Origin: Elusimicrobiota bacterium
GTDB taxonomy: Bacteria > Elusimicrobiota > Elusimicrobia > Elusimicrobiales > UBA9959
Direction of reading: 5' to 3'
Length of the DNA stretch: 48,845 nt
NCBI GenBank assembly: GCA_027340875.1
Contig: DAIENX010000055.1
Coordinates: 1-48,845, forward strand
Shown: positions 9,978-48,536 of the stretch, piece after piece
Numbering within the stretch: the first letter of the stretch is position 1
Layout: each line of letters begins with the position of its first letter
The notes under the pieces: generated by a model
The model's database searches: none
The model's input: the letters and a program-made list of their open reading frames with translations, nothing else
Told to the model about the DNA's origin: nothing
Made by a program: the position numbers and the translations under genes

Positions 9978-10010
9978 GACAGATCCGCAAATAATCAGGA
10001 GGGTACCGCA

Positions 10011-10259
10011 ATGGCAGTTACCGATAACCTTGAAGAGAGAGTGAAGAAGATAATCACCGAGCAGCTGGCCGCCGACGCGGCCGAGGTCACCCCGCAGGCC
10101 CAGTTCGTGCAGGACCTCGGCGCGGACTCCCTCGACACCGTCGAGCTGGTGATGGCCCTCGAGGAAGAGTTCGACATCGAGATACCCGACGAGGACGCCG
10201 AGAAGATCAAGACCGTCGGCGAGGCTATAAACTACATCAAGGAAAAAGCCGGCAAGTAA
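10011..10259 (+). CDS. acpP: Acyl carrier protein
   Basis: [40 protein letters not shown]. Confidence 0.97.
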
Positions 10260-10272
10260 GCCAGCTTTTCCC

Positions 10273-10959: not shown

Positions 10960-10995
10960 CGCGCCTCTGCGGGGGACCGGCAGGAGGAAGGGACC

Positions 10996-12386: not shown

Positions 12387-12405
12387 GCGGCGCAGAGGGG
12401 AACAT

Positions 12406-33800: not shown

Positions 33801-34289
33801 CGTGTCGGCATAGAAGACCGGGGTGGCCACGCTGGCGGTGGTGGCGTACACGGAGCTGAAGGCGTACGGGGACGACTGCAGCTTGACGCGCGGGGACATG
33901 GCCTCGAAAGGTCCTGCGCAATCGCCGTCGGCGTCCACCTGGATCTCCAGCCAGAGGCCGTCGTTCTCGGAGAAGATGGAGGCCGGGACGCCGCCGGCGG
34001 TGCCGGAGCCTATCTCCACGTCGTAGCGGCCTTTGGTCACCTTCACGTCGCAGCGGGTCTCGGAGAAGAGCTGGCCGGTAATGCCGGTGGGGGAATTGTA
34101 GATCCGGAACTTGAAATCCTGCGGGGTCTCTACCGGCAGGTTGGTCACCTTGCTTATCAGGTAGCCCTGGTAATGTATGGTGGGGGTGATGACGCAGGAA
34201 GCGGGGGACGCCCAGAAGGCCAGCAGCGCTCCGAGCAGGGCCGCTCTGGCGGCTCCGGGGGTTTTTGAAGGTGCGTGACCGTGGTTCAT
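30867..34289 (-). CDS. Large secreted Ser/Thr/Gly-rich fibre-like (phage tail-fibre-repeat) surface protein
   Basis: Signal peptide; N-terminal YQGYL...WLEIQV...PRVKLQSSPYA domain; repeats GNVGIG..P..RLHV, (F/Y)xGxG..L and (K/S/T)(A)GDT(M/V)TG; SD GGAGG. Confidence 0.8.
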   Translation of the reverse strand: MNHGHAPSKTPGAARAALLGALLAFWASPASCVITPTIHYQGYLISKVTNLPVETPQDFKFRIYNSPTGITGQLFSETRCDVKVTKGRYDVEIGSGTAGGVPASIFSENDGLWLEIQVDADGDCAGPFEAMSPRVKLQSSPYAFSSVYATTASVATPVFYADTIGALPYTANGAITISTNLFVEGGISVGSISPGQTLAVAGIVESSTGGFKFPDGSIQTRAAAFTMWDISGINIYTINPGNVGIGESNSAPLARLHVSSAAGATGDLLLVSTGTSQLFKVNGLGQVSGGSYYGDGTTLSGILRSAGDTMTGPLTLAGSTLSVTSPNGLYTPAVKFGPNVTVSSASAAYYGGVFFSSNVYTAGYFYGDGRGLLNVVSSDTSKVLKAGDTMTGQLTISGATLTVTGNAFSVGGSTLTVSGGKVAVGGAPYTHALTVNSGGIYSASSVTAAGAIYASAVNATNGTGTFYNVTATSGTFWGWDVATTYSVDTASGIKVRAGVVDAPYFVGNGSQLTNVTGNDPARLLRTGDTVTGNFTVLGSSLTVTSYGNSSKYALTVGTQTQYNLVVTTTGYVGVHQLDPTAPLDVQERLAITNTLPAGGDANLLMTANNGYNYIRWADPGSLFVNGSAQGVFGYAPGSRNLIYRAMGTDPYNGGSEVFRITSDNNASWNFGIGTDSSPQNQPRERFHVLTSLLVSSSSARAVLFVSTQTGRVSLSTTTQSHTLTVNGDVLAVSSITAQGGFFGDGSGLTNLQTAALPGILDIATVTARAGGLYDAVIFSTAVYVNSRVAIGDLFNPTTELHVKGVARIDNKGGNDVVLQLFPDVAGSSYIRWDEGVATQKGVLGMKSGERDLVYRSYATSLNDGLQVFRIKGSNAADNGSFIIGSALSSFVPNSRFHVLTNMTVSGEGKSPAFYVSTGNASGLYPYVGVSTGAPAEGLHVASSMLVGANRAAASLYVSTATGYTGVGTGSPVEGLHSAGSFLVGADRTIASFYVSTGTGYTGVGTGAPQAKLDVAGLGVFRSSLTVEGGGLSGTQTAFSVIGSTLVVTNYGNVGIGASSPQARLDVNGSAQFGSGTSKSTFTAEGYWQPRSMTTAQLQAASPPAVGAVVFNSSISDLCVSTGTAAGQWALAGSKGVGNCF
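31270..31555 (-). repeat. Tandem ~37-aa (111-nt) coding repeats in the fibre protein
   Basis: Units of YVSTxTGYTGVGTGxPxEGLHxAxSxLVGAxRxxAS; CGGTGCTGAC recurs at 31301 and 31412. Confidence 0.75.
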
Positions 34290-34303: not shown

Positions 34304-35920
34304 CTATCTGACCACCACTATGGTGCCGTTGTAGACCTTGGAATCGCCTTCCAGCTGGTAGATATAGACGCCGCCCGGCACCACCTGGCCTCCGGCTTTC
34401 GCGTCCCAGACCAGGGAATTGGCCACCGGGCCGGGCTTCATCGTCGCCACGAGGGCGCCGTGCAGGTCGAAGATCCTGCCCTTGATGTGCTTTTCCTCGG
34501 GGTTGTCGAAGATGAACACCATCGTATCATTTTTCCCGTCGCCGTTAGGAGTTATCAGACGGTTCAGCAGGCCGGCTCTGTCGGCGCTGAACGCGCCGGT
34601 CCGCTCGGTGAGGCGCAGCTGATAGCGGCCGAGCAGGCGGGTGGAGAGCTTTACGCTGTGCTCGGTCTCGTTGACGACGCCGAACATCTGCAGCCAGCGC
34701 GACCCGTTGAAATAGTACATGCTGAGCGCCTTGGCGTCGGTAGCTCCGGAGGGGACTATGGAGCCGCCCGCTTTGGAGTAGTACATCTTCAGCGTGCCCT
34801 CCTTCTCCAGCTGGAAGAGCGGGTCCGGGCGCAGGCCGCCGCGGTAGGCGGAGAACTCGACCGACTTGACCACGCGGCCGGTGAGGTCCGCCTGGTGCGT
34901 GGAGATCTCCAGCGTATAGACGTCCATGGGGTCCACGGAGGAGGAGAAGAAGGAGCCGGTGCCCTCCTGCGGCACCTCGAAGATGCTCTGGTTGTCGGGG
35001 GCCAGGAAGTACAGCCCCCCGCTGTCGCTGGACCTTGCGTACGACGGGAACGAGAGGCCGGCCTGGTTCATGGCCCTGGCATGGTAGTAATAGGGGTCCG
35101 CGGTAGGGACTATGTCCGTCCAGGTGAGCGTGTCGGTGGAGACGTCGGCTATCTGGACCCACTCGGCGTCGGCCGGCGCGGTGGCGCGGTACACCTCGTA
35201 GCGCTTGACCTCGTAGGGATAGGACGGGTGGAAGCGGTCGTCGAAGGCTATACGGTTCTGGTAGCCGGCCGGCGGGATCCAGGTCATCGTCACGGCGTTA
35301 CCGCTGCGCGACAGCTTGAAGTTCATCGGCGCGAGCGGGACCAGCGCGAACGCCGCCGCCGGGTTGGAGAGCTCGGAGCGTATGGAATGCCCGTTCAGCG
35401 TCTCGAGAGCGAAATAATAGGTGGTGCCGGCGTTGAAACCCTCTATGATCCTGGTCTCGCCGGCGCCGGGTGCCTGCGGGTCCCAGGCCTGCACGAACGA
35501 GGAGGCGGAATAGAAACCGTCGTCGCTGGTGATGAACCCGACGGTGCTGTAGCGCAGTATGTAGTACTCCACAGGCTCCGCGGCCCGGCTGGCGTCGGCG
35601 GAGGGGGCGGTCCAGGTGAGGCGTATGGAATAGCTGGACACGATGACCGGCGTCAGGTCGAAGACCGGGGCTGGCACTGGGAAATAGGACAGCCTGCCGG
35701 ACCTGCCTATAAGCGCGGAGGTCCCAGCGCTGGAGACCACCAACTCTTCCACCGAAGCGGCCTGCTCGAAGTTGGGGGAGATCATGTACTGCGACCCTTC
35801 GTCGTAGCGCCCGCTGACGTCGATGAACGTGGACGAGGCGAGCCGGGCCCCGAACGACGGCGCGGCCGGCACGAGCGCCGCCAGCAGCAGCGCGGCGATG
35901 ACCTTTCCTGTATTCCTCAC
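34304..35920 (-). CDS. Secreted fibronectin-type-III protein with a gliding-motility-associated (T9SS type B-like) C-terminal domain
   Basis: FN3-like LTWTAP...YILRYS...GTTYYFAL and MTWIPP...YEVYRA...YYY. C-terminus LITPNGDGKND..IFDLHG..WD..PGGVYIYQL..YNGTIVVVR. Start set at GTG 35920, where the signal peptide begins 7 nt after TATAAT. Confidence 0.8.
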   Translation of the reverse strand: MRNTGKVIAALLLAALVPAAPSFGARLASSTFIDVSGRYDEGSQYMISPNFEQAASVEELVVSSAGTSALIGRSGRLSYFPVPAPVFDLTPVIVSSYSIRLTWTAPSADASRAAEPVEYYILRYSTVGFITSDDGFYSASSFVQAWDPQAPGAGETRIIEGFNAGTTYYFALETLNGHSIRSELSNPAAAFALVPLAPMNFKLSRSGNAVTMTWIPPAGYQNRIAFDDRFHPSYPYEVKRYEVYRATAPADAEWVQIADVSTDTLTWTDIVPTADPYYYHARAMNQAGLSFPSYARSSDSGGLYFLAPDNQSIFEVPQEGTGSFFSSSVDPMDVYTLEISTHQADLTGRVVKSVEFSAYRGGLRPDPLFQLEKEGTLKMYYSKAGGSIVPSGATDAKALSMYYFNGSRWLQMFGVVNETEHSVKLSTRLLGRYQLRLTERTGAFSADRAGLLNRLITPNGDGKNDTMVFIFDNPEEKHIKGRIFDLHGALVATMKPGPVANSLVWDAKAGGQVVPGGVYIYQLEGDSKVYNGTIVVVR

Positions 35921-35927
35921 GAGTAAG

Positions 35928-36030
35928 ATTATACCCGGGGCATGCGACCAAAATATTACGAACAGATTACTTTTCGACGGGCAAAATTCCATAAATCCGC
36001 AACAAAACAGTCACAAGTGAAAAGTAAAAT
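35928..36030. promoter_or_regulatory. Divergent promoter region between the two CTD genes
   Basis: Minus-strand TATAAT (35933-35928) 7 nt before GTG 35920; plus-strand TAAAAT (36025-36030) 8 nt before ATG 36039. Confidence 0.55.
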
Positions 36031-36038: not shown

Positions 36039-36446
36039 ATGAAGTGCCCGTACCGCGCTCTCTGCCTGCTGGCCGCCGCCGCTCTGGCGCCGGCTTCCGC
36101 TTTTGCGGCCGCCTCGGCGCTGGGCGAGTCGAAGGCCATGAGCCGGCTGGTGACCCCCAACGGCGACGGCAGGAACGACACCTTCATCTTCCGTTGCCAC
36201 AATCCGCGGGACTCCGCCATAGAAGCCAGGATCTACGATCTCCACGGGGGGGAAGTGGGCAAGATGCGGCTCAGACAGCGCTCCAACGGTTCAGACCCCT
36301 TCGCCGGCAGGGACGACGCTTCCGGCATCTATTACGATCTCGAATGGGACCCGAACTCCGGCGCGAAGGTCCCGGGCGGCGTTTACATGTACCAGATCAC
36401 GGTGGAGACCAAGGTCTACAAGGGAACGGTCGTAGTAATAAGGTAA
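36039..36446 (+). CDS. Signal peptide plus stand-alone gliding-motility-associated C-terminal domain
   Basis: LVTPNGDGRNDTFIF..RIYDLHG..WD..PGGVYMYQI..YKGTVVVIR makes up nearly the whole mature protein. Confidence 0.8.
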   Translation: MKCPYRALCLLAAAALAPASAFAAASALGESKAMSRLVTPNGDGRNDTFIFRCHNPRDSAIEARIYDLHGGEVGKMRLRQRSNGSDPFAGRDDASGIYYDLEWDPNSGAKVPGGVYMYQITVETKVYKGTVVVIR

Positions 36447-36455: not shown

Positions 36456-38426
36456 ATGACATCACGGAAAGGAAGGCTCCTGGCGGTCCTGGCGGCGGCG
36501 CTGTTCGCCTGCCGTGCCGCGTCCTACGCCGCCTTCGAGGACATGGGCTTCGGGGCCCGCGCTCCCGGCATGGGAGACGCCTTCACCGGCGTGGCCGACG
36601 ATATCTCTTCCGTGCATTACAATCCGGCCGGCCTCTCCAGCATCGAGAGACCTAAGGCGCTGGCCACTCACTCGCTGTTCCATACCGGTCTGAGCGACGG
36701 CTCGAATCTGGGCCTGAGCGCGGGCGCCTTCGCGCTGCCGCTGTCCGACGGGCGCAACGGCACGCTGGCGGCGGCCTGGGAGGAATTCTCGCTTTCCGGG
36801 ATCTACTATGAGAAGACCGGCCTGCTCTCCTGGGGCTACCGGATGCCGAAGAACTCCCGCTACGAAAAGTTCTCGATCGGCGCCTCGCTGAAGTATCTCT
36901 CCCACGGCTTCGCCAGGCTGGACGAGACTTACAACGCCGTTGAGAGCAACCTCTCCCAGAACGGGGCCACGGACCCGGTGCTGGCCGGCAACAACGCCGT
37001 TTCAGCGGTGGACGCCGACCTCGGGGCGCTGTACAGGCTGGACAAGCGCTGGACGCTCGGAGCCGCGGTACTCAACGCGATGCAGGCCAACGTGGCCTTC
37101 GGGGACCAGAAGGACCCGGTGCCGATGAAGATGCGCGCCGGCGCTTCTTTCAAGAGCCTCTGGCTGCTGCTGGCCGCGGACGCCCGCCTGCAGAAGGGTC
37201 CCGACGGCAAGATGGACAAGCAGTTCATTTTCGCGGCCGAGAAGGTGTTCCCCAGCCTGGACAAGGGCGAGTTCGGCATACGCGGCTCGCTCGGCGCCGG
37301 CGACAGGGAATTCAAGCAGGGCACACTGGGCTTCTCCTACAAGATACAGCGCATCCAGTTCGACTACGGCTTCATGATGCCGATAGGGACCCTGAAGGAG
37401 ACCTCCGGCAATCACCGCCTGGCCCTTACCTACCATTTCGGCAGCCCGACGCAGGCGGAGCTGGCCGAGACCGAGCTGCTGGACCAGTACAAGCGCCTCA
37501 GGGAGGCGGAGAACTTCCGCGGCGCCAGGGACACCGCCAGCCTCGACGACCCGCGCCTGACACAGGTGAAGGAGCAGGTCGACGCCGAGAATTTCTACGC
37601 CGCCAACAAGCTGCTGGTGGCAAAGGCGGGCGAGCTGCTGCCCGACTCCTCTGTGGTCAACCTGACCCGCCGGCTGGCCGCGGTCGCCGCGTATTTCCCG
37701 TCGCTGGCAGTCCAGGACCGGGACAAGACCCGCTCGGAGCAACTGCTGTCCGCCGGCGTGCAGAACTTCCTGCGCGGGCGCGACATCCGGGCGATGAAGC
37801 AGCTAGCCTATGCCCAGAGCCTGAACCAGCAGGACTCCTCGCTTTCCAACTTCCTGGACAAGGCGGGCGAGATAACCCGCATCGCCCCGGACCGCGTCCC
37901 GAACGACTTCAGCCGCGGCTGGCCCGAGTACAAGATGTCCCAGTCCGACGACCTCTACGCCAAGAAGAAGCACGCCGAGGCGCTGCGCAAGCTCGAGGAG
38001 CTGCTGGACATCGAGCCCAACAACCTGATGGCCCTGAAGAAGAGCGGCTCCTGCGACTACATGCTCAACTTCTACAGCCGCGCGATGGCCGCCTGGGAAA
38101 AGGCCATGGCGGAGGAGAAGGATCCCGACGAGAAGGCCAAGCTGGCCAAGATGATAGAGCAGGCCAAGAGCAAACGCGGGCAGGAGGCCGCCTGGGAGCC
38201 TCCCGGCGGAGCTTACGAGCCGCCGGAAGGTGAACAGCAGCAGGCGCAGACCGGCAAGTCCAGGAACGCCAGGGAGATAGAGAAACTCTACCAGGCCGGC
38301 GCCGACTACTACGCCAAAGGCGACTACGGCAAGGCGGCCGACGCCTTCCGCAAGATACTGACGCTCGACCCGCAGAACGGCCAGGCCAAGAAGGCCCTGG
38401 AGCGGATAATAAGGCTCTCCCGCTGA
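36456..38426 (+). CDS. PorV/PorP-like outer-membrane beta-barrel fused to C-terminal TPR repeats
   Basis: GARAPGMGDAFTGVADD.S.VHYNPAGL motif; alternating beta strands ending HRLALTYHFG; then helical TPRs (YYAKGDYGKAADAFRKILTLDPQNGQA). Confidence 0.78.
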   Translation: MTSRKGRLLAVLAAALFACRAASYAAFEDMGFGARAPGMGDAFTGVADDISSVHYNPAGLSSIERPKALATHSLFHTGLSDGSNLGLSAGAFALPLSDGRNGTLAAAWEEFSLSGIYYEKTGLLSWGYRMPKNSRYEKFSIGASLKYLSHGFARLDETYNAVESNLSQNGATDPVLAGNNAVSAVDADLGALYRLDKRWTLGAAVLNAMQANVAFGDQKDPVPMKMRAGASFKSLWLLLAADARLQKGPDGKMDKQFIFAAEKVFPSLDKGEFGIRGSLGAGDREFKQGTLGFSYKIQRIQFDYGFMMPIGTLKETSGNHRLALTYHFGSPTQAELAETELLDQYKRLREAENFRGARDTASLDDPRLTQVKEQVDAENFYAANKLLVAKAGELLPDSSVVNLTRRLAAVAAYFPSLAVQDRDKTRSEQLLSAGVQNFLRGRDIRAMKQLAYAQSLNQQDSSLSNFLDKAGEITRIAPDRVPNDFSRGWPEYKMSQSDDLYAKKKHAEALRKLEELLDIEPNNLMALKKSGSCDYMLNFYSRAMAAWEKAMAEEKDPDEKAKLAKMIEQAKSKRGQEAAWEPPGGAYEPPEGEQQQAQTGKSRNAREIEKLYQAGADYYAKGDYGKAADAFRKILTLDPQNGQAKKALERIIRLSR

Positions 38427-38469: not shown

Positions 38470-39789
38470 ATGAAGCTATTCCATAAGTTCAGCGCCGCGC
38501 TTATGGCCGCCGCGTTCGCGGCGGCCGCGCTGCTGTCGGTCATCTTCTTCAGCTTCCAGAACCGCACGGTGCAGGCCGCGCAGCGCGCGCGCCTGGCCGC
38601 TCTGGAGCAGTCCGTCTCGGCGATGCTCGGCGAGGCCGAGCTGGCCGGCGATCCCCTGATGGCCGTGGACTATCTCTCCGGGCTGTGCTCGTCGCGGCCG
38701 GAGGTGCAGTACTGCCAGCTGGACATCGGCAGGGGCCTGCGCCCTGTCCGCACCACGCGCAAGCCGGCGCCCTCCGGAGAAGGTCCTCCCGTGATAAGGG
38801 ACGTGGCCGGCCGCAGGTACTCCGCCAGGCTGGCTTTCTCTTCCGGAGAGCTGCTGCGCGAGCGCCGGGAGGCGCTGGCCGGCGTATGGCACGACCTGGC
38901 GGCCGCCTTCCTGGCCGCGATGGCCGCCGCCGCCCTCCTCGGGCTGCTGCTGGCCCGCCGGATGACCCGCCGCCTAAAGCGGCTGGCCGCAGAGGCCGCG
39001 GCGGTGGGTGACGGGCGCTTCGGCGCCAAGACGGACGCGTCCGGCTCCGACGAAGTGGCCGAACTGGCCGGCGCCCTCAATGCCATGTCGGACCGCCTGC
39101 TGGAACTCGAGACCATGAAGAAGAATTTCACGGCCTCCGTGACCCACGAGCTGCGCTCGCCGCTGGGGGTCATAGAGACCTACGCAGCCATGCTGCTGGG
39201 CGAGTCCGAACGCTTCCGTCCGGAGGATACAGAGATCTTCAGGCGCGTGAAGGAGAACGCCGGCAGGCTGGCCAACTTCGTCACGGCCATGCTGGACCTG
39301 GCCCGTATAGAGAGGGGCAAGATGGAGCTCCGTCCCTCTAAGGAGGACGCTCTTTCCCTGGCCCGCGACGCGGCCGAGTTCTTCTCGCCCAAGGCCGCTG
39401 AGAAAGGTGTCGCGCTCCGGGTGGAGACCGAGGGCGGGGGACAGGCCCTGCTGGACCGGGAGCTGATGACGCACGCGCTGACCAACCTGCTCTCCAACGC
39501 GATAAAATTCACTCCGGCCGGAGGGGAGGTGGTGCTCAAGGCCTCCCTGGGGGGAGGGCGCTTCCGCGCAGAGGTGCGCGACACAGGACCGGGGCTTAAG
39601 GAAGGCGAGGCGGAGAGGCTCTTCTCGCCGTTCGCCCAGGGTTCGGCGGCGCCAGGCCACGGCGGCACCGGGCTCGGGCTCGCGATGGTGCGCTCCGTAG
39701 CGGAGCTGCACGGCGGCAAGGCCGGCTGCGGCCCGGCCGGCGGCGGCGGTGCGGTATTCTGGGTGGAGGTCCCGTCCGGGCCCGCGTAA
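38470..39789 (+). CDS. Membrane sensor histidine kinase (2 TM, HAMP, HisKA, HATPase)
   Basis: H-box VTHELRSPL, N-box NLLSNAIKFT, DTGPG, GGTGLGL. Confidence 0.93.
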   Translation: MKLFHKFSAALMAAAFAAAALLSVIFFSFQNRTVQAAQRARLAALEQSVSAMLGEAELAGDPLMAVDYLSGLCSSRPEVQYCQLDIGRGLRPVRTTRKPAPSGEGPPVIRDVAGRRYSARLAFSSGELLRERREALAGVWHDLAAAFLAAMAAAALLGLLLARRMTRRLKRLAAEAAAVGDGRFGAKTDASGSDEVAELAGALNAMSDRLLELETMKKNFTASVTHELRSPLGVIETYAAMLLGESERFRPEDTEIFRRVKENAGRLANFVTAMLDLARIERGKMELRPSKEDALSLARDAAEFFSPKAAEKGVALRVETEGGGQALLDRELMTHALTNLLSNAIKFTPAGGEVVLKASLGGGRFRAEVRDTGPGLKEGEAERLFSPFAQGSAAPGHGGTGLGLAMVRSVAELHGGKAGCGPAGGGGAVFWVEVPSGPA

Positions 39790-39828
39790 TATCTTTGTAA
39801 CCTGGGTTATATAGAATTTATCAAGAAT

Positions 39829-41283
39829 ATGAAAGCCCTAGCCCGTTCCATCGTGATCCTGCTGCTGGCCGCCCCGCTGGCGGCCGCGCCCGCTTCGGAG
39901 GACCCGACCCCTTCCCCGGGAGCTCAGGCGGCCGAGATATCCTCGCGGATGCAGCAGGACGTCTCCCGGCTGCTGGAGGAGCTGGTCGGCCGCGGCCGCG
40001 CCCGCTCCTTCGTCACGGCGGAGGGGGAGATGGTCTACCAGAGCAAGAGCGAGTCCGGCCCTCCGCCCGAGGAGGCCCAGACCCTGCCCGGCTATGCGTC
40101 GGTCAACATACTCGAGAAGACCGGCGAATATATAAAGCAGCAGCGCGAGGAGAGCCAGCACACCGCCGAGTTCAAGGTCAAGAAGCTTTCGGTCTCCCTG
40201 GTGTTCGACCGCAGCGTCCCCGACGAGCGCGTCAACGCGATAAAGCTGATGATAGCCGAGGTGCTGCGGGTCAGCGAGGCCCGCGGCGACAGCATCATCA
40301 CCGCCAAGACCGACATGATGCCGTGGTGGAAGAGCGCCCTGCAGTCCCCGGAGATACGCCCGGTCCTGGTGGCGGCCGCCTTCGGCGCGCTGGCGCTGGC
40401 GGTCCTGCTGGCCTTCGGCTACATACTGGCGTCCAAGCTGCTTACGGGATTCGTGGACTACGCCAGGATGAACGCGCCCTCCGCCCTTCCCGGCGGCGCC
40501 GGCGGCCCCGGCGCGCCCGCGGGGCCCGGCGGCGAGGCCGGCGAGCTGGGCCTGGAAGGGGAGCTGGGAGAGATAATCGACGTGGAGGCCAAGGCCGCGG
40601 GCGGGGGCGGGATGCTGACCGCCGGCTCCGCGTTCGAGTTCATGGAGAAGCTGCCGCCTTCCGAAAGCGCCGACCTGCTGGCGGACCTCTCCGACGAGGA
40701 CGCCGCGATAATCATCGCCAACCTGGCCGACCGCAAGCCGCACGTCTCGTCCAAGATCCTGCTGGCGCTGCCGCCCGCCAAGAAACAGTCCGTCTCCGCG
40801 CAGCTGCTGGCCCTGAAGCAGGCCGAGCCCGACCGCGTCTACGAGATCGAGAACGACCTGCGCCTGAAGCTGGAGAAGAGCCTGAAGGGCGCCGAGAAGC
40901 TCGGACATCTGCTGTCGCTGGTGGACGAGGGATCGCGCAGCGAGATAATGGACAACCTGTCCCGCGCCAACCCCGAGGCTTCCGAGGAGCTGCGCCGCAG
41001 GATGGTCACTTTCGACGATCTCTGCCGCCTGGACGACAAGAACCTGCGCCCGCTGGTGGTCTCGCTGCCTTACGCGGACTGGGCCGCCGCGCTGGCCGGC
41101 GCCGGGGAGACCGCGGTCAACAACGTGACCAGGCTGCTGCCGGAGGACGTCCGGCTGGTGGTGAAGGACCTGCTCGCCGGCCGCACCGAGGAGGACAAGA
41201 TAATAACGGCGAGGGCCAAGATCATAACCGCGGCGATGAACCTGAACGCGAAAGGCCGCATTAGCCTGAAGGAGGGCGCATGA
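39829..41283 (+). CDS. FliF(C-terminal ring domain)-FliG(middle and C-terminal) fusion protein
   Basis: Signal peptide; FliF-C-like LLEELVGRGRARSFVTAE...VKKLSVSLVFD...IAEVL....RGDSI; TM helix; Gly-rich linker; FliG-like AFEFM..IIIANL..ILLALP..EIENDL..EELRRRMVTFDDLCRLDD..AALAGA..KIITAAMNL..GRISL. Confidence 0.75.
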   Translation: MKALARSIVILLLAAPLAAAPASEDPTPSPGAQAAEISSRMQQDVSRLLEELVGRGRARSFVTAEGEMVYQSKSESGPPPEEAQTLPGYASVNILEKTGEYIKQQREESQHTAEFKVKKLSVSLVFDRSVPDERVNAIKLMIAEVLRVSEARGDSIITAKTDMMPWWKSALQSPEIRPVLVAAAFGALALAVLLAFGYILASKLLTGFVDYARMNAPSALPGGAGGPGAPAGPGGEAGELGLEGELGEIIDVEAKAAGGGGMLTAGSAFEFMEKLPPSESADLLADLSDEDAAIIIANLADRKPHVSSKILLALPPAKKQSVSAQLLALKQAEPDRVYEIENDLRLKLEKSLKGAEKLGHLLSLVDEGSRSEIMDNLSRANPEASEELRRRMVTFDDLCRLDDKNLRPLVVSLPYADWAAALAGAGETAVNNVTRLLPEDVRLVVKDLLAGRTEEDKIITARAKIITAAMNLNAKGRISLKEGA

Positions 41284-43265
41284 GCGGCGCCCATGAAGCT
41301 TCCGGCTCCGATCTGGACTATCTCTGGCGGGCCGTCGGAGAGGCGCAGGACGCCTCGGCGCGCTCGGAGAAAGAACGCGCCGAGGCCCGGCGCAGCCTGG
41401 ACGAGGCCGTCTCGCGGGCAGCCAGGCTTGAGAGGCAGCTCGAGGAGACCCGCGCGCGGGAAAAAAGACTGAAGGCCGAGACCGAGAAGTTGAAAGCCTC
41501 CCTGCAGAAGGATTCCGAGGCTCTGACCCTGGCCGCTGGACATGCCCGCGAGGCCTCGGAGCTGCAGGCCTCCCTGCTGCGCCAACAAAGCGCCGCCTCG
41601 ATGAAGGCGGCCGAGTTAGAAGAGCTGCGGGCGAGGGCCATCGACCTGGAAGCGACGGTGACCGAAAGGGACGCCGCGATAGATTCTTTCAAGGCCAGGA
41701 TAGAGGGGATGCTATCCCTGCCGCAGATAAAGCGCGCGGTGGAAGAGGATTCCAGGATATCCGGCAAGGAAGCCTCGGCGTACGAGGCGCTCGCAGAGAA
41801 GGCCGAAAGGAGCCGGCTGGCCGCCGAGAAGGCGGCCGCCGCGCTGCAGGAAGCCGCGGTCAGGGAGAAGGCCTCCGCCGAGGCCCTGGCGGCCTCGGAC
41901 GCGGACCTGGCCTCCGCCAGGGCGGCCCTGACGGCCCGCCAGGCGGAGCTGGCGGCCATGCAGGCCGCGCTGGACGAGGCCCTCGAGCGGGGGAAGCTCT
42001 CCGCCGGCGAGAAGGCATCTCTCGACGGCAAGGCCCTGGCGCTGAGGTCCGCCCTTTCGGAAAAGGAAGAGGCCCTCAAGGCCGCCCTTGCGGAGTCCTC
42101 CTCCCTGCGGGCGAGGCTGGACGAAGCCGCCGTGCAGGCGGAAAGGCTCCGGCAGGCGGCGGCGGAAAGCTCCGCGCGCGCCCAGGAACAGCGCGCCAAT
42201 TTCGATTCCGCGGTAGCCGAGGTGTACGAGCTCCAGAAGCGGTCCGCCGCGCTGCGCGCGGAGCTGGCGGACGCCAAGGAGCGGCTGGACGCCGCCGCGG
42301 CGGCGCTCAAGCAGCGCGAGGCCGACCTGGAGAAGGTCAACGGTCTGCTGCGCGACTCCAAGGGCGGCCTGACGCAGGAGAAGGAGGTCTCCAAGCGCGC
42401 CGCGCTGAAGGTAAAATCCCTCGAGGCGGAGATAGATGAACTAAAAAAGAAGCTGGCCGAGACCGCCGACTACGCTGGAAAGGTGCTGAAGGCAGTCCAG
42501 GAGCGCGACCTGCTCATCGGGGCCACGAAAGCCTCGCTGGCGGCCGAACAGAAGAAGGTCACGGACCTGGAGATAGAGAACGAGGACCTCCGGCGCAAGA
42601 ACATCAAGTTCTCCGGCATGCTGAAGCGGGAGCAGACGGATTTCACCACGCGCATGCTGACCTCGCTGGAGCGGTCGGCGAAGGACCTTAAGACCTTCAA
42701 TCTCCGCATACCCGCGGCGCAGCGGAAGGTGCTGGAGCCGGCGCTGAAGAACCTGCTGGCCTCTGTCAACCTGCTCAAGGGCTGGCAGGAGTACCTCGAC
42801 CCCGAAACCCCCGACATGGAAGACACGGACCTCGCGCCGTTCGTCTCCGGAGAGGTGGCCAAGTGGGAGCGCGCCTTCAAGGTCAGGAAGACCTCCATTT
42901 CAGCCGCCATACTCAACCCGCGGCTGCGCGCCAGGCTTGCCCCGGAGCGCATAAAGATGCTTTTCTACAACCTCATTAAGAACGCCTATGAGCGCCTGCA
43001 GCAGGGCGGCAGCCTGCGCGTCACGCTGAAGGCCTCCGAAGACGGCAGGCAGGTCATCCTCCTCTTCGACGACAGCGGCCCCGGCTTCACGCAGGAGGCG
43101 CTGGATAAGCTTTACGCGCCGTTCAACACCACCGACAAGGGAAAGGCCGGCATAGGGCTGGCCGTGGCCGCCAGGATAGCGGAGAAGCACGGCGGCACGC
43201 TGCAGGTCTCGAACAAGCAGCAGCGCGGAGCCATAGTGGAGGTCAGGCTGCCCCTGGGCGCCTGA
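41280..43265 (+). CDS. Long coiled-coil protein with C-terminal HATPase_c domain, no phospho-acceptor His
   Basis: About 430 aa of Ala/Glu/Lys/Arg heptads; NLIKNA, DDSGPG, PFNTT, GIGLAV, HGG boxes; ATGA overlap with the FliF-FliG gene. Confidence 0.82.
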   Translation: MSGAHEASGSDLDYLWRAVGEAQDASARSEKERAEARRSLDEAVSRAARLERQLEETRAREKRLKAETEKLKASLQKDSEALTLAAGHAREASELQASLLRQQSAASMKAAELEELRARAIDLEATVTERDAAIDSFKARIEGMLSLPQIKRAVEEDSRISGKEASAYEALAEKAERSRLAAEKAAAALQEAAVREKASAEALAASDADLASARAALTARQAELAAMQAALDEALERGKLSAGEKASLDGKALALRSALSEKEEALKAALAESSSLRARLDEAAVQAERLRQAAAESSARAQEQRANFDSAVAEVYELQKRSAALRAELADAKERLDAAAAALKQREADLEKVNGLLRDSKGGLTQEKEVSKRAALKVKSLEAEIDELKKKLAETADYAGKVLKAVQERDLLIGATKASLAAEQKKVTDLEIENEDLRRKNIKFSGMLKREQTDFTTRMLTSLERSAKDLKTFNLRIPAAQRKVLEPALKNLLASVNLLKGWQEYLDPETPDMEDTDLAPFVSGEVAKWERAFKVRKTSISAAILNPRLRARLAPERIKMLFYNLIKNAYERLQQGGSLRVTLKASEDGRQVILLFDDSGPGFTQEALDKLYAPFNTTDKGKAGIGLAVAARIAEKHGGTLQVSNKQQRGAIVEVRLPLGA

Positions 43266-43284
43266 CCCGGAGCGCACCGCGGAG

Positions 43285-43310
43285 AAGGCCGGCGGGAGCC
43301 GGCCTTTTTC
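43285..43310 (+). terminator. Intrinsic terminator
   Basis: AAGGCCGGC-GGGA-GCCGGCCTT-TTTC. Confidence 0.8.
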
Positions 43311-43311
43311 A

Positions 43312-43526
43312 TTTGGTTCCCACGGTTCTGCAGTGCCTGGCGGCAGTAAACCTGTCGGGGTGGAGTACCGCCTGGGGTAGCGCCCTGCAGCCGCATAGCG
43401 GATGGGGGGCCCCGGCCCTTACGGGGCGGGGGGAAACCACGGGAGGGTTTCCTGCGCGGCGGAAGGGCGCTTCCCGGGCGGGACGGACCCCCCGGCGCTT
43501 TTCCACAATCGAGGACACGATCCAAA
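43312..43526 (+). ncRNA. Candidate structured non-coding RNA (unidentified)
   Basis: Ends pair (TTTGGTTCCCACGGTT / AATCGAGGACACGATCCAAA) and enclose several hairpins; intergenic between convergent operons; G-U pairs favour the + strand. Confidence 0.35.
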
Positions 43527-43539
43527 CCCGAAATCGCCT

Positions 43540-44217
43540 TTATTTGAAGGTATAGCCGAGGCCGAAAGCCGTCCTCAGCCTGGAGCCGAAAGGACCCAGC
43601 TTCCGGCGCAGGGCCTCGACGCGCTTGTCCACCGCGCGCGGCCCGGAACCCAGCCCCTCCCGCCAGACCTGCTCCAGCAGCACGTACCTGGAGACCACGC
43701 GACCGCGGTTCCTCAGGAAATACAGGAGCATGTCGAACTCGAGCGCCGTCAGCGGGACCTTCCTGCCGGAAACGACGGCCGTCCTGGCTTCCGGAGAGAT
43801 GCGCAGCGGCCCTATCCTGAACTCTTCAGGCTCGGACTTGGCCGCGCCGCGGCCCCTGCCGCGCTCCAGCAGGTTGAGCAGCCGCGCCCTGAAAAGGGCG
43901 GGGTCGGCAGGGAAGCGGAAATATTCGTCGGCCCCGCTGTCCAGCGAACTCGCGGCCGCCGCCGGGGAATAGGGGCCGGGGCCTGTGAGCACCAGCAGCA
44001 GCGAGGAGGTGCGCGGGCTGCCTCTCAGCACGGCCGCCAGGTCAGGCCCCGACATGTCCGGCAGAGACGCGTCTATAACGGCCAGCCCCTTGGACGGCGG
44101 CGATTTCAGGAAGGCGGAGGCGGAGGGGTAGAACCGGAGCGCGAAGCCCTTGAGGGCAGAGCGCAGGAAGGTCCTGGCGGAAAGGTCCGCGGTGAGGCAG
44201 GCCGCCGACGGTCTCAT
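43540..44217 (-). CDS. OmpR/PhoB-family response regulator with atypical receiver
   Basis: Winged-helix LTALEFDML..GRVVSR..LLEQVW..RAVDKRVEALRRKL..GLGY. The receiver lacks the acidic pair and the conserved Lys. Confidence 0.85.
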   Translation of the reverse strand: MRPSAACLTADLSARTFLRSALKGFALRFYPSASAFLKSPPSKGLAVIDASLPDMSGPDLAAVLRGSPRTSSLLLVLTGPGPYSPAAAASSLDSGADEYFRFPADPALFRARLLNLLERGRGRGAAKSEPEEFRIGPLRISPEARTAVVSGRKVPLTALEFDMLLYFLRNRGRVVSRYVLLEQVWREGLGSGPRAVDKRVEALRRKLGPFGSRLRTAFGLGYTFK

Positions 44218-44591
44218 GCGGAGGAGACCGCGGCCTTTATCCTGCGCAGCAGCTCCGCCGGGTCGAACGGCTTCAGAACATAGCCTGCGGCGCCCAGCTT
44301 AAGGCCCTCCGAGACCATGTCCAGCTCCGAGCGGACCGTAAAGAAGATTATGGGGACTTTTGCCAGCGCGGGGACCTTGCGGATGCGGCGCGCCGCCTCG
44401 AAGCCGCTTATGTCCGGCAAGCCCACGTCCAGCAGTATCAGCGCCGGCGGACGCTCGGCGGCCAGCTCGATGCCGGGGAGAGCGGCGGCCGCGGTGGCGA
44501 CCTCGCAGCCGGCCCTGGCCGCGATGGCGGAAGCGATCCGGAGATAGTCCGGCTCGTCGTCCACCACCAGCACCCTGGGACGCTGCGTCAT
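44214..44591 (-). CDS. Single-domain response regulator (receiver)
   Basis: VLVVDDE, LLDVGLP, IIFFT, YVLKPF. Confidence 0.92.
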   Translation of the reverse strand: MTQRPRVLVVDDEPDYLRIASAIAARAGCEVATAAAALPGIELAAERPPALILLDVGLPDISGFEAARRIRKVPALAKVPIIFFTVRSELDMVSEGLKLGAAGYVLKPFDPAELLRRIKAAVSSA

Positions 44592-44974
44592 TTCTGCGGA
44601 AGGAGAGCGAGGACCTTCTTCTCCAGGAAGGAGAGTTCCACGGTCTTGCTCATGAACTCGCGGCAGTTGGTCTCCTGCCTGAACAGGTCGCTCATGTTCT
44701 TATCGAAGAAGCTGCCGGTGATGACCACGACCGGTATCGAGCGGGTCTCGTCCTCGGTCTGCAGGCCGCGTATCACCTCTATGCCGCCCATGTCCGGCAT
44801 CATCACGTCGCAGAGGATGATGTCGGGGCGGATGGCCTTGGCCTTCAGGAGGCCTTCGCGGCCGTCGCCGGCTATCTCCACGGTGAAACCGAGGTCCGTG
44901 AAATAATCGGATACCATGGTGCGGAACTCGACATTGTCATCAATGATCAGCATCAGGCGCTTTTGTGGTTGCAT
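44588..44974 (-). CDS. Single-domain response regulator (receiver)
   Basis: LIIDDN, LCDVMMP, VVVITG, FMSK. Confidence 0.92.
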   Translation of the reverse strand: MQPQKRLMLIIDDNVEFRTMVSDYFTDLGFTVEIAGDGREGLLKAKAIRPDIILCDVMMPDMGGIEVIRGLQTEDETRSIPVVVITGSFFDKNMSDLFRQETNCREFMSKTVELSFLEKKVLALLPQK

Positions 44975-44981
44975 AGCGGTA

Positions 44982-45010
44982 AGTATATTTCAAATAACCG
45001 GCGTTTTCAA
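44982..45010 (-). promoter_or_regulatory. Internal sigma70 promoter for the three response regulators
   Basis: TTGAAA (45010-45005), 17 nt, TATACT (44987-44982), 7 nt, ATG 44974. Confidence 0.7.
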
Positions 45011-47130
45011 GAGGGAGAGGGGATGGGCGGAGGGGGAGCCGCCATCGATTTGGAAACGGTAAAGATGAACTTGCTGCCCTTGCCGACCTCGGACTCCACC
45101 CAGATGTCGCCCTTGTGCAGCTCCACGGTCATCTTGCACATCGCCAGTCCCAGGCCGAAGCCCTGCGTCTTGTGCTCCTCCATCTGAGAGTACTTCTCGA
45201 AGATCTCCTTCCTCTTGTTCTCCGGGATGCCCGGGCCGGTATCCTGCACCGCGAAATAGACCTTCTGGGCATCCTCCCAGGTCGACAGCGTGATCGTGCC
45301 CCCGGACGGCGTGAACTTAAGCGAATTGCCCATCAGGTTGGTGATAACGCGCTCGATCAGTATCGGGTCCGCGGTGAGCTTCAGCGGCGCGGCCGGCACC
45401 GCGGCCTCCAGCTTGATGTTCTTGGGCCCGGCCACCGGCTCGTGGTTGTCGCGCACGCGGGTTATCAGCGCTCCGGCGTCCACGCTGTCGAGCTGCAACG
45501 TCATCGTGCCGCGCTCGAGCTTGGTGGTGTTCAGGATGTCGTCTATCATGCCGCGCAGCCGGCGCGAGGAGTAGAGCATGCTCTGCAGGTACTTGTCGGT
45601 GGCGGGGGACGGGCCGATCTTTTTCATCAGCAGCTCGGTGTAGCCCTGCAGCGTGGAGAGGGGGGCGCGCATGTCGTGCGTGATCATGTGGAAGAAATCT
45701 TCCTTGGCCTTCTCTATCTCCTTCTCGCTCGTGATGTCGCGTATGATGATGACGCGGCCGGGACGCTTGAGCGTCGCGAGCAGGAACTGGTTGGAGATCA
45801 CGCGGAAGCTCTTCGTGACCGTGCTGGTCTCGTTCGAGATCGGCGCGTCCACCTCGGCCTTGAGGTATTTCTCCTTCTGCGCGAGCAGGTCCGTCAGCGC
45901 GGTGAAGAAAGCCTCGTTCTTTACCGAGCGCGGCACCGCCACCTCCGGGGAGATCTTCGGGATGCCCAGCAGTTTCAGGGCGGTGTTGTTGCAATAGATC
46001 AGCGAGCCGCGGTCGTCTATCAGCAGCACGCCGTCGGAGATGGTGTCTATCAGCGCCTGGGCCTTGCCCTTCTCCTCCACGATCTGGTTCAGCTGGAAGG
46101 CGCGGTAGGCCTGCAGCTCCAGCATCAGCCGGTTAAGGATGCCGACCAGGGACTTGATCTCGGGCCACCCCTCCTGCGGTATGACGTTGTCCAGGTGCTG
46201 GGTCTTCAGGAAGCCCTTAACGCCGTGGGCCATGTTATTGACCGGCTTGATGATGCGGTTGGAGACCAGGAAGACCACGAACAGGGCCGTGACGAAGATG
46301 ACCACGGACATCACGCCGAAGACCAGAATGGACTTGCGCTGCTTGCCGTACAGCTCTTCCTCGGACTGCACGGAGACCGCTGCCCAGTCCAGCTTCTCGA
46401 TGGCGGCGTAAGCCCCGGAGTAGTCCTCCCCGGAGAGCTTGAAGCGCGCGAAGGTGCCGGTGCGGCCGCCTGAACGGAAGACCTTCAGCATGTCCTCGGG
46501 CTTGTAGGAGAGGCCGCTCATGTCCTGGCAGGGCAGCGGCACGCCCTGCTTGTCCGCAACGAAGACGCGGCCGGTCCTGCCGCTCTTCTGCGAATTTATC
46601 TTGCCCAGCAGCTTGTCCATCGAGAAATGGAAGACCACCACCCGGCCGTCTATCAGCGGGTAGGCGAGGGGGAAATAGGCCTGGCCCTTCACGCATATGG
46701 GATCGCCGGGGGAGGCTACGCCGCTGTCGGCCGCCTTGGCTATCAGCGGCTTCTCCAGCGCGGCCAGCGAGCTCTTCTCCTTCACCTTCTCGCTCTGCAG
46801 GAAGAAGGTCTCGGTGCCGTCGGGCGCCATCAGGGAGAGGGACATTATCTCGGAATTTATGCGGGCCGCCTGCCGGATGACCTGGTTCTCGTCGAGGCCG
46901 GCCTTCTTGCGCAGCGGGTTCTCCAACTCGTAGAGGAAGGCGAGGTTGCGGTTCGTGTTGCCCAGCCACTCCTCGATATTGGCGGCGGTCAGGCGGGAAA
47001 GGGCCTTGTGCAGGTCGAAGTAGCTGGCGACGGAGGAGTTGTACTGGTAGACGTTCCAGGACACGGCGAGGAGCAGCGGGACCACGGCAAGGCCCAGCAG
47101 GATCAGCAGGAATCGTGTCGTCAGTTTCAT
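45007..47130 (-). CDS. Sensor histidine kinase (Cache-like periplasmic domain, HAMP, PAS, HisKA, HATPase)
   Basis: Two TMs; PAS-like IDTISDGVLLIDDRG..CNNTA..IIRDIT; ITHDMRAPL, NLMGNSLKFT, DTGPGI, GFGLGL. Confidence 0.93.
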   Translation of the reverse strand: MKLTTRFLLILLGLAVVPLLLAVSWNVYQYNSSVASYFDLHKALSRLTAANIEEWLGNTNRNLAFLYELENPLRKKAGLDENQVIRQAARINSEIMSLSLMAPDGTETFFLQSEKVKEKSSLAALEKPLIAKAADSGVASPGDPICVKGQAYFPLAYPLIDGRVVVFHFSMDKLLGKINSQKSGRTGRVFVADKQGVPLPCQDMSGLSYKPEDMLKVFRSGGRTGTFARFKLSGEDYSGAYAAIEKLDWAAVSVQSEEELYGKQRKSILVFGVMSVVIFVTALFVVFLVSNRIIKPVNNMAHGVKGFLKTQHLDNVIPQEGWPEIKSLVGILNRLMLELQAYRAFQLNQIVEEKGKAQALIDTISDGVLLIDDRGSLIYCNNTALKLLGIPKISPEVAVPRSVKNEAFFTALTDLLAQKEKYLKAEVDAPISNETSTVTKSFRVISNQFLLATLKRPGRVIIIRDITSEKEIEKAKEDFFHMITHDMRAPLSTLQGYTELLMKKIGPSPATDKYLQSMLYSSRRLRGMIDDILNTTKLERGTMTLQLDSVDAGALITRVRDNHEPVAGPKNIKLEAAVPAAPLKLTADPILIERVITNLMGNSLKFTPSGGTITLSTWEDAQKVYFAVQDTGPGIPENKRKEIFEKYSQMEEHKTQGFGLGLAMCKMTVELHKGDIWVESEVGKGSKFIFTVSKSMAAPPPPIPSPS

Positions 47131-47134
47131 CTGG

Positions 47135-47761
47135 TCAGATCTCGTGCCTGATTATGTTGATCTCTATGCGCCTGTTCTTGGCCCTGCCCTCGGGGGTGTC
47201 GTTGGTCTGTATCGGCTTGAACTCCCCGTAGCCCACGGCGGAGAGCTTCTCCGGCGCCACTCCCTCGTTAAGGAAGAAACGCAGCACGGAGAAAGCGCGG
47301 GCGGAGGAGAGCTCCCAGTTTGACTTGAACTTGGACGACTTGCCCAGCGGCCTGTTGTCGGTGTGCCCCTCTATCTGTATCGGGTTCGGCAGGTCCTTGA
47401 AGACCGCCGTAAGGCGGCGCAGGTGCGGATAGGAGGACTGCTTCAGCACATCGCTGCCCGGGGCGAAGAGTATCGGGTCGGCGAAATTGATGCTGATCTT
47501 GTTCGCGGAGATCTCGACCTGCGCTATCTGCTGTATGCCGTGCTTGGAGAAGAGGGTGTTGGCGATGTCGGTATCCTGGCCGAAGGTCTCCTCGACGCCC
47601 TTCATCGCCATCTGACTCCTGATGTCCTTCGAGCTGTAGAGCGCGAACATGATCAGGAAGAAGATCATCAGGTAGCTCATCATGTCGCCGTACGTGACGG
47701 CCCAGAGGGCTCCCCGGTTCAGCTCGTTCTCGAGCTCGTCCTCGCGTTCGTAGAAGCGCAT
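47135..47761 (-). CDS. motB: MotB-family stator subunit with OmpA-like peptidoglycan-binding domain
   Basis: WAVTYGDMMSYLMIFF (ion-binding Asp), IEGHTD, NWELSSARA, GYGEFKP, NRRIEI. Confidence 0.9.
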   Translation of the reverse strand: MRFYEREDELENELNRGALWAVTYGDMMSYLMIFFLIMFALYSSKDIRSQMAMKGVEETFGQDTDIANTLFSKHGIQQIAQVEISANKISINFADPILFAPGSDVLKQSSYPHLRRLTAVFKDLPNPIQIEGHTDNRPLGKSSKFKSNWELSSARAFSVLRFFLNEGVAPEKLSAVGYGEFKPIQTNDTPEGRAKNRRIEINIIRHEI

Positions 47762-47762
47762 A

Positions 47763-48536
47763 TCAGGCCTTCTGGGCCGCCTTGCCGGCGTCCCTGAGCT
47801 GGTAGCCGCGCAGGTGCATGTCTATCAGGTGGGGGGTCTTGCCCGCCATGATGTCTATCACGCCCTCGAGTATCAGCTGCAGCACCAGCGTCTCCTCCAT
47901 CGCGCGCAGGCGGATCTTGTTGGCCACGGGCACGAACAGGAGGTTGGACAGGCCGATGCCGAAGAAGGCGGAGCTGATGGCCACGGCCATCGAGCGGCCG
48001 ATGGTGGTGGGATCGGAGATATTGCTGAGCGTCTGGATGATGCCGAACAGCGTACCGATCAGGCCGAACATCGGCGAGAGCACGCCCGCGGTGCGGAAGA
48101 AGTTGGAGTCCTCCTGTATGTCGAGGCGGCGCAGGCGGATCTCCTCCTCCAGTATGGCCCGGGTCTCGCGCGACTCGGCGCTTATCATAGCCACGCCCAC
48201 GGCCCTCTTCAGGAAGCCGCCGGCGAAGGCCGGGTCCGGGTTGGAAATGGCCATTATGCCGCCCTGGCGCTGCGCGGTCTCGGCCATCCCCACCAGCATG
48301 CGTACCGCCTCGTCCACGGAGGGGGTCTTCGGGCTGGAAAAGATGTCCGCCAGCGCCTTGAGCCCGCCCATGAACCTCTTGGCTGAGGTATTGATTATCG
48401 TGGCGGCCAGGGTGCCGCCCAGCACGATGACGATGCCGTGGGTGTCCAACAGCTTGTCGCCGATGCCGGAAGAGAAGACGCCCCAGGCGACCACCGCCCC
48501 GCCTAGTATGAAACCGACCAAGGTCATTATGTCCAT
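47763..48536 (-). CDS. motA: MotA-family stator subunit
   Basis: MDIMTLVG.., IVLGGTLAA, SPMFGLIGTLFGII, IGRSMAVA..AFFG..SNLLFVPVANK, LEGV..I..G..P; directly upstream of motB. Confidence 0.88.
   Translation of the reverse strand: MDIMTLVGFILGGAVVAWGVFSSGIGDKLLDTHGIVIVLGGTLAATIINTSAKRFMGGLKALADIFSSPKTPSVDEAVRMLVGMAETAQRQGGIMAISNPDPAFAGGFLKRAVGVAMISAESRETRAILEEEIRLRRLDIQEDSNFFRTAGVLSPMFGLIGTLFGIIQTLSNISDPTTIGRSMAVAISSAFFGIGLSNLLFVPVANKIRLRAMEETLVLQLILEGVIDIMAGKTPHLIDMHLRGYQLRDAGKAAQKA

Follow-up and report, generated by a model that had tools for sequence, protein, structure and literature searches.

To our knowledge, MotAB-driven FliG rings have been described in flagella only, and type IX secretion system (T9SS) carriers are known to be moved only by GldLM. 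Here, we analyze a gene cluster that combines parts of both systems, carried by a 48,845-nucleotide stretch of DNA referred to as the window (contig DAIENX010000055.1, positions 1 to 48,845, of the Elusimicrobiota assembly GCA_027340875.1) and built around a FliF–FliG fusion, a MotA–MotB stator and an outer-membrane barrel with a periplasmic tail of tetratricopeptide repeats (TPRs). With the flagellar motor, the locus shares the RBM3/β-collar fold, the FliG middle and C-terminal domains, a flagellar-type MotA, the plug, transmembrane (TM) Asp and OmpA domain of MotB and, in one paralog type, flbD; it differs in that its rotor is a natural single chain, its partner is an outer-membrane carrier, and FliM/N, the export gate, the rod, the filament and the FliM-binding motif are missing. 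With the T9SS and gliding machinery of Bacteroidota, it shares a putative SprA-like translocon, many PorV-family barrels, cargo with a C-terminal domain (CTD) encoded beside the carrier, and a carrier with a periplasmic C-terminal extension. Here, however, MotAB is paired with a FliF–FliG rotor, GldL/M were not found in searches that had no positive control, and the carrier tail, which is of the twin-cysteine kind in Bacteroidota, is a TPR domain of about 230 residues; the locus also belongs to an organism outside the Fibrobacteres–Chlorobi–Bacteroidetes (FCB) group. FlgSR, FlrBC and FleSR would resemble the locus in having kinases tied to FliF/FliG ring assembly; the locus differs from them by its membrane kinases, OmpR-type output and coiled-coil pseudokinase, and it has no flagellar genes to switch on. 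By analogy, FlgS, which binds multimerized FliF/FliG according to the available text of PMC7064773, is the closest precedent for the kinase link. Finally, an ion-driven stator of the 5:2 family is common to the locus and to Zorya ZorAB, ExbBD and TolQR. When five window proteins were compared with PADLOC, only MotB gave matches, to ZorB models via shared domains; MotA matched no model, neither ZorA nor ZorC/D/E was found, and the neighbours are kinases and receivers. We know of no FliG ring in the ZorAB, ExbBD or TolQR systems. Altogether, the locus resembles a flagellar rotor–stator attached to a T9SS carrier, and the features that define these two systems place it in neither of them, its parts being known ones.

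Many motAB, flbD and fliG homologues of enigmatic role are reported for non-flagellated Elusimicrobiota in the accessible part of a preprint (bioRxiv 10.1101/2022.07.08.499144); these extra copies of free-living Elusimicrobiota, counted there by KEGG orthology, are almost surely the same genes, and that part mentions no FliF–FliG fusion, operons, barrel, TPR tail or kinases. A word search of the text available for PMC13277936, PMC12505986 and 10.1101/765248 finds no mention of the system, and our literature search, whose coverage of subscription journals is thin, turned up no account of either the fusion or the machine. The conserved cluster points to an ion-driven machine, so far undescribed, that moves or ejects surface fibres.

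A rotor and stator apart from the flagellum

The rotor, stator and carrier are encoded as follows.

36456..38426, + strand: outer-membrane barrel of PorV/PorP-like type that ends, at its C-terminus, in a periplasmic TPR tail (core 37440-38183), from NF033709 and a structure match
39829..41283, + strand: rotor fusion of FliF RBM3/collar and FliG, from Pfam and an AlphaFold2 (AF2) model
47135..47761, − strand: motB, compact (208 aa), with TM Asp26, plug and peptidoglycan-binding OmpA domain, from Pfam MotB_plug and OmpA
47763..48536, − strand: motA, flagellar-type, from Pfam MotA_ExbB

The window genome (labelled G000, the window being its contig C76) amounts to 2.8 Mb and is 92.45% complete and 5.49% contaminated. 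Searches for FlhA, FliM/N, rod and flagellin, each of which matched in 4 of 14 control genomes, gave no match in it, nor did the FliF N-terminal family PF01514, which matches strongly in 5 of 151 genomes. An earlier note, made from the window alone, had taken the motor to be non-flagellar, and this genome-wide search bears it out; the same note called the motor an orphan, which does not hold, since the genome has four paralogous motor loci. More specifically, its five FliG_C and six MotA/ExbB matches correspond to these four loci, to one FliG-like gene that stands alone, to a stator block that is nearly a duplicate and to a single locus of ExbBD/TolQR type. Our phylum sample comprises 151 Elusimicrobiota genomes, which are incomplete assemblies and include kin that are not independent. 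FliG_C matches are present in 57 of them, three with canonical-length FliG only and 54 with fusion-length frames, and reach six per genome. MotB_plug was found in all 54 fusion genomes; FlhA and FliM/N were each matched in 4 of the 151, two of these among the 54, so that both are absent in 52 of the fusion genomes, and the two flagellated ones hold a separate full-length FliF. The two largest sampled families, whose genomes are mostly of 1–2 Mb, are devoid of the fusion (f2, 0 of 45; f12, 1 of 44, canonical). Note that the earlier note was right to find no che genes in the window, yet the genome, which gave no flagellar matches, carries some elsewhere: a chemotaxis cluster (C110:20888-27007) has three matches to the CheW domain, one of which falls in a frame of 726 aa.

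The motor loci of the phylum fall into paralog types. Type D is that of the window locus, which belongs to family f1; the others have the following gene orders.

Type A: barrel-TPR, fusion with TPR, coiled coil, flbD, motA, motB, lipoprotein
Type B: barrel-TPR, kinase, motA, fusion, coiled coil, motB
Type C: fusion, motA, two motB, stand-alone TPR, another barrel

FastTree trees, which include only 7–8 flagellar-type outgroup rows, resolve the paralog clades and not their order, several deep nodes being below 0.6.

The fusion matches YscJ_FliF_C (1.1e-4), FliG_M (7.2e-5) and FliG_C (9.4e-16) in Pfam. Its AF2 model, based on 121 sequences (predicted local distance difference test, pLDDT, 84.7; predicted template modeling score, pTM, 0.48), displays a signal-like helix, an α/β domain with a long two-stranded extension, a TM helix (residues 176–215), a disordered linker and FliG, with the middle and C-terminal domains at residues 267–480. 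Residues 24–163 match the RBM3/collar of FliF (6sd1; Z 14.1, root-mean-square deviation (rmsd) 2.3, 99 residues) and score lower against SpoIIIAG (Z 8.5) and EscJ (Z 8.4); residues 259–480 match FliG (Z 18.0, rmsd 6.3, 219 residues). In the model, RBM3 directly follows the signal peptide, FliF TM1, RBM1 and RBM2 being absent from the fusion, and FliG_N has no Pfam match in it. The FliM-binding motif of FliG, which we take to be EHPQ and which is present in the T. maritima FliG chain aligned here, is replaced in the fusions and intact, among the aligned rows, only in the flagellar L109. FliF TM1, RBM1 and RBM2, FliG-N and this motif serve the export gate and the switch, so that the losses fit a rotor having neither. 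The FliF–FliG fusion recognized earlier is thus real, but its "FliF" is RBM3 only, behind a signal peptide, and its FliG has no N domain. We then compared fusions across a neighbourhood set of 79 regions from 40 genomes, hand-picked for long contigs from 143 FliG_C matches, which together with the window holds 79 fusion genes. A single TM segment separates the FliF and FliG parts in 77 of the 79, and 77 have a hydrophobic N-terminal stretch; L108 is a truncated type A fusion. Two fusions of 826–827 aa (L078, L102) have some 340 extra residues ahead of RBM3, and L028:93-962 encodes a protein of 289 aa, standing alone, that starts with a TM segment and has the FliG middle and C-terminal domains, without RBM3.

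The stator is of the flagellar kind: the best NCBIfam and PDB matches of MotA are flagellar MotA/PomA (1e-45 and 2e-35), versus 7e-5 and 4e-3 for TolQ/ExbB. In alignments, the TM Asp26 of MotB is kept, as are Arg90, Pro155 and Thr162 of MotA. E. coli stator–rotor residue pairs, taken from the accessible text of PMC12505986, were mapped onto the fusion via the T. maritima FliG alignment; under this mapping, which is an interpretation, all 12 type D rows have an acidic residue at the position equivalent to FliG Asp288, and 19 of 21 have Arg or Lys at MotA position 90. Across 59 loci, FliG distances vary together with those of MotA (rho 0.71; best of 500 shuffles, 0.19), indicating that each rotor travels with its own stator, i.e. 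co-inheritance of cognate pairs rather than contact.

Some further features of the stators were observed. At type C loci (L073, L071, L076 and others), the second of the paired motB genes often has Asn for the TM Asp, which suggests a putative asymmetric stator with one conducting channel. Near-identical coiled coil–flbD–motA–motB–lipoprotein blocks are present on two contigs of the window genome (L025:648-4983 and L029:603-5731), as a result of either recent duplication or strain mixing in the bin, given its contamination. GYF_2-like N-terminal domains occur in a protein near one stator block (L029:8185-10056) and in another beside the ExbBD/TolQR-type locus (C110:43463-44491).

The outer-membrane carrier and its candidate cargo

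The most constant partner of the fusion, a barrel with a TPR tail, is encoded one gene upstream of the unit delimited in the earlier note, which had missed it. The window barrel matches NF033709 (5.5e-16; 59 bits for a cut-off of 90), and the Atlas structure match names PorP_SprF. Its tail is modeled as an all-helical TPR array of 12 helices (pLDDT 91.2), for which a fold search returned generic TPR arrays only, none at E≤0.001. We took the C-terminal tails of 49 PorV-like proteins encoded next to a fusion and made a profile of them, which gives four strong matches in the window genome, one per motor locus; the stand-alone tail of the type C locus on contig C63, which was outside the training set, scores 1.7e-41, and the next best match in the genome 1.1e-8. 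Within 7 kb of the 79 fusion genes, we found the tail at 69, a barrel gene at 65 and motA at 59. At 23 loci, the tail is a stand-alone protein that was outside the training set, and 22 of 25 stand-alone tails have a signal-like hydrophobic stretch, which places the tail domain in the periplasm.

The tail also follows the fusion from genome to genome. In a search of the 151 genomes with a query alignment that included loci of the neighbourhood set, tail matches at E≤1.4e-20 were obtained in exactly the 54 fusion genomes; five of the other 97 have matches of 4e-14 to 6e-13. SprA-like genes are present in 87 of these 97 fusion-less genomes and PorV-family genes in five out of five tested, and 13 long PorV regions from four fusion-less genomes gave no tail match better than 1e-6. 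Fusion-less genomes thus keep SprA-like and PorV genes without the tail, which argues that the tail follows the motor, not the secretion system. Ordinary TPRs were present in two of four scanned long PorV regions of fusion-less genomes. We had considered a long PorV as a marker of the motor and dropped it because of these 13 tail-less regions. Prediction of a complex between two RBM3 copies and the TPR tail scored 0.11 and 0.08 (mark, 0.32) and counts neither way. At most type C motor loci, the PorV-like barrel is replaced by a 639-aa family exemplified by L030:10955-12874 (C63), which has a barrel-like C-terminus and no Pfam or NCBIfam match.

Three genes on the far side of the barrel complete the outer-membrane part of the locus.

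30867..34289, − strand: fibre-like surface protein of 1140 aa, candidate cargo or output (NCBIfam Bdello_MAT_N 2.6e-6, below cut-off)
34304..35992, − strand: fn3 protein with a T9SS type-B-like CTD, candidate cargo/adaptor (Pfam fn3 and CHU_C over cut-off)
36039..36446, + strand: signal peptide and CTD-only protein of 135 aa, opening the + strand unit (Pfam CHU_C 9.9e-9)

An orthologue of the fibre-like gene is found in all 15 close loci (among L001–L024) that reach that far, with 45–68% identity, and related genes lie within about 10 kb at two other motor loci of the window genome. The fn3-CTD gene is conserved in f1, with only its C-terminal half in f5 and f6 loci, and in type D loci, as in several further paralog types, the CTD-only gene is found at this same place. 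The only two CHU_C matches over cut-off in the window genome are both at this locus. Giant CTD proteins (1600–2200 aa) precede many motor loci elsewhere, and a CTD gene lies within 9 kb of 40 of the 79 fusions. According to the text available for PMC12618676, type B T9SS cargo stays bound to its cognate carrier, often encoded beside it; likewise, the accessible part of PMC12635249 describes a SprF carrier whose periplasmic C-tail attaches to a motor-driven track.

The window genome has 29 matches to NF033709, 16 when only those over cut-off are counted. It also has a SprA-like gene (L031:3515-8869, on C14) of 1784 aa, with TIGR04189 (1.3e-39) as its only NCBIfam match; SprA-like matches were obtained in 141 of the 151 genomes, all of them below cut-off. 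For GldL, the 151 genomes yielded a single weak match, below cut-off, and for GldM the window genome yielded none, in searches for which no control genome matched either. As a separate observation, Elusimicrobiota would have a T9SS-like translocon outside the FCB group. We dropped the idea that the motor is a general T9SS energizer replacing GldLM, as 87 of the 97 fusion-less genomes keep the SprA-like gene.

The kinases and receivers of this paralog

The remaining features of the locus are signaling genes and a hairpin.

38470..39789, + strand: membrane histidine kinase with two TM segments, short periplasmic domain, HAMP and intact H box (Pfam, motifs)
41280..43265, + strand: cytoplasmic coiled-coil HATPase pseudokinase, no TM segment (alignment)
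43281..43310, + strand: terminator-like hairpin between the convergent units, 13-pair stem (consensus match only)
43540..44217, − strand: OmpR-type regulator (only Trans_reg_C matches)
44214..44591, − strand: single-domain receiver (Pfam Response_reg)
44588..44974, − strand: single-domain receiver (Pfam Response_reg)
45007..47130, − strand: dCache-PAS histidine kinase, intact H box (Pfam, alignment)

The nine open reading frames (ORFs) of the earlier note are all where it placed them and on the strands it gave, and so are the 4-nt gap between motB and the kinase gene and the 4-nt overlap (ATGA) between the fusion and coiled-coil genes. Its unit, 38470..48536, is right in content and too short in extent, the conserved unit reaching upstream to 30867; its coiled-coil HATPase gene is present as described, but the product has no phospho-acceptor His. 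In 14 of 14 aligned orthologues (13 loci, four families), this protein is without H box and keeps the N, G1 and G2 boxes, while the H box is intact in both histidine kinases. The two single-domain receivers (Response_reg, 1e-26 and 2e-18) have intact phosphorylation residues in alignments, and the receiver of the OmpR-type regulator is degenerate in f1 and intact in f5/f7 orthologues. A promoter scan of the locus gave three sites versus 1.6 expected.

The neighbourhood is kept across families of Elusimicrobiota, in agreement with the reading of the earlier note. Among 24 close loci (71–98% identity), 14 keep the full order from the CTD genes to motA and the rest end at contig edges; the upstream kinase is present in 17 of 17 close f1 loci reaching that far, and motB in 19 of 19 reaching downstream. 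The type D paralog was matched in 50 of 251 class genomes, from five families. In the 30 best type D loci, four of which had served in profile building, a kinase is directly upstream of the fusion in 27, and the 1.5-kb downstream flank holds the pseudokinase in 16 and a Cache kinase in 4, 10 being not callable. The motA–motB–regulator block is rearranged yet adjacent in f5 and f7, and the dCache-PAS kinase is kept at type D loci of f1, f5, f6 and f7, with variable place and strand. Of the genome's 44 kinase ORFs, a single one is matched by the periplasmic domain of the small upstream kinase, and the domain is found again at this paralog's loci in four families: this kinase is dedicated to this paralog. 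A kinase link as the main purpose of the whole family is not supported, since a kinase lies within 2.5 kb of only 17 of the 79 fusion genes (none in types A and C), compared with 59 for motA and 69 for the TPR tail, both within 7 kb; for reference, 9.4% of the window genome lies at most 2.5 kb from a kinase.

Proposed machine and competing interpretations

We propose that the cell has four paralogous envelope motors working independently of any flagellum, and that the locus encodes one of them. The fusion would be exported via its signal peptide and anchored by its one TM helix; judging from its fold, RBM3 would polymerize into an S-ring-like ring with the FliG domains beneath the membrane, and cognate wall-anchored MotA5B2 stators may, given the residues that they keep, pass ions and push FliG-C, thereby exerting torque. 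Without rod or export gate, the force would leave through the periplasm, where the TPR tail would link the ring, directly or via a further part, to the PorV/PorP-like carrier; the latter would hold a CTD-bearing protein delivered by the SprA-like translocon, plus the surface fibre, both links being suggested by gene linkage. The job would then be to move a surface adhesin, like Flavobacterium SprF–SprB, with a flagellar rotor–stator substituting for GldLM and the GldK track. The dedicated kinase, pseudokinase and receivers of this paralog would time expression or report assembly or load, whichever way the signal runs. That the motor moves a carrier-bound surface protein, controlled by a dedicated kinase set, has in our view an even chance of being correct. 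A more specific version is possible but rather doubtful, namely a rotary class without type III export in which the FliF–FliG ring turns a T9SS-delivered fibre via a periplasmic TPR coupler, one paralog's kinase cascade reporting its state.

Several observations weigh against this proposal. MotA has Ala190, adjoined by Ser189, where PomA has Thr186, and Ala is what all 21 rows of type D, all 4 of type B and 8 of the 9 of type A have there. The PomA T186A substitution abolishes Na+ flow in Vibrio, as stated in the available text of PMC6677748. A Ser lies beside the Ala in all 21 type D rows, and it may stand in for Thr186, or the stator may use protons. On the rotor side, the position equivalent to FliG Arg281 is Arg in 4 of 87 non-flagellar rows versus 2 of 2 flagellar rows, meaning that one of two stator–rotor ion pairs is gone. 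No tail lies near 10 of the 79 fusion genes and no CTD gene within reach of 39, the SprA-like gene scores 135 bits for a cut-off of 200, and linkage explains part of the co-occurrence of tail and fusion, the profile having been built from the same loci. Force transfer from the ring to the surface cargo is something that we infer throughout, and the co-occurring genes are linked. Finally, the architecture is not tied to the barrel everywhere. On a metagenome contig (L131), the fusion, motA and a LysM-type motB run directly into fliK, a hook gene, fliM, fliP, fliR and flhB (3096-13411); on another (L132), the fusion, motA and a LysM-bearing motB are followed by fliK before the contig end (3923-10007), an insertion sequence-like transposase ORF interrupting the block. 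The proteins of both contigs are named Margulisiibacteriota or Saganbacteria, and the Margulisiibacteriota-contig MotA groups with types B and D (FastTree 0.95). The fusion–stator module can thus sit in a flagellar cluster elsewhere.

The same parts might serve secretion only, the motor pulling or ejecting the loaded carrier from the SprA-like translocon, or assembling large fibres, as a cargo-specific energizer with no later surface movement. Ejection of carrier–substrate complexes is the energy-requiring step in Bacteroidota (PMC12635249, in its accessible part), and the giant CTD proteins and the absence of GldL over cut-off and of GldM, albeit lacking a positive control, would fit. However, the SprA-like genes of the fusion-less genomes mean that the translocon needs no such motor in general, and the presence of several paralogous motors in one cell, each having a stator to itself, fits separate outputs; we consider this reading unlikely. 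A mechanosensor, along the lines of the earlier note, is a further candidate: the ring with its stators would probe load, surface contact or ion-motive force, and the kinases that read them would, at least in this paralog, be the main output. The kinase placed directly upstream at most type D loci, with its unique periplasmic domain, speaks for it, as do the conserved pseudokinase translationally coupled to the fusion, the altered ion site and torque ridge, and the binding of FlgS to FliF/FliG only after multimerization (available text of PMC7064773). Yet no kinase lies within 2.5 kb of 62 of the 79 fusions, among them all those of types A and C, the ion-site Ala is equally found in the kinase-less type A, and for surface sensing the link to barrel and fibre would be required all the same; we hold this reading to be likewise unlikely.

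A static ring platform, on which MotAB tugs or tethers the outer membrane like TolQR or ExbBD, would account for the lost Arg281 equivalent and the lack of a C-ring switch, and the SpoIIIAG-type ring shares the fold. It is nevertheless very improbable given the retained FliG-C torque domain, with its acidic Asp288 site and MotA Arg/Lys90, and a MotA of flagellar rather than TolQ/ExbB type in a genome that has a separate ExbBD/TolQR-type locus (C110). Least credible, and largely refuted for Elusimicrobiota, is that flagellar genes have been displaced here or are in decay: their homology, the flbD next to motA of type A and the Margulisiibacteriota clusters would speak for it, but 52 of the 54 fusion genomes have no FlhA or FliM/N match, the two flagellated ones have their own full-length FliF, and open frames and gene order are kept across families.

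If our proposal is correct, a machine joining a FliG ring to a T9SS carrier would be a further kind of ion-driven envelope motor. Such a machine would provide a testable explanation of the way in which free-living Elusimicrobiota without flagella move or deal with surfaces, the TPR-tail domain being the first piece to test, and the fusion, motA and motB a natural three-gene minimal rotor–stator for reconstitution. A rotor–stator module working apart from type III export would also bear on flagellar origins. Under the more specific, rotary version, flagellum-less Elusimicrobiota, magnetotactic ones included, would gain a means of moving on surfaces or of handling particles, each cell having several paralogous motors, one of them wired to a state-reporting kinase cascade, and the Margulisiibacteriota module would show the rotor–stator core moving between flagellar and non-flagellar machines. 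Beyond Elusimicrobiota, a metagenome scan with a divergent alignment returned only three loci, and Atlas look-alikes in Bdellovibrionota, Cloacimonadota, Balneolota, Myxococcota and Bacteroidota provide leads.

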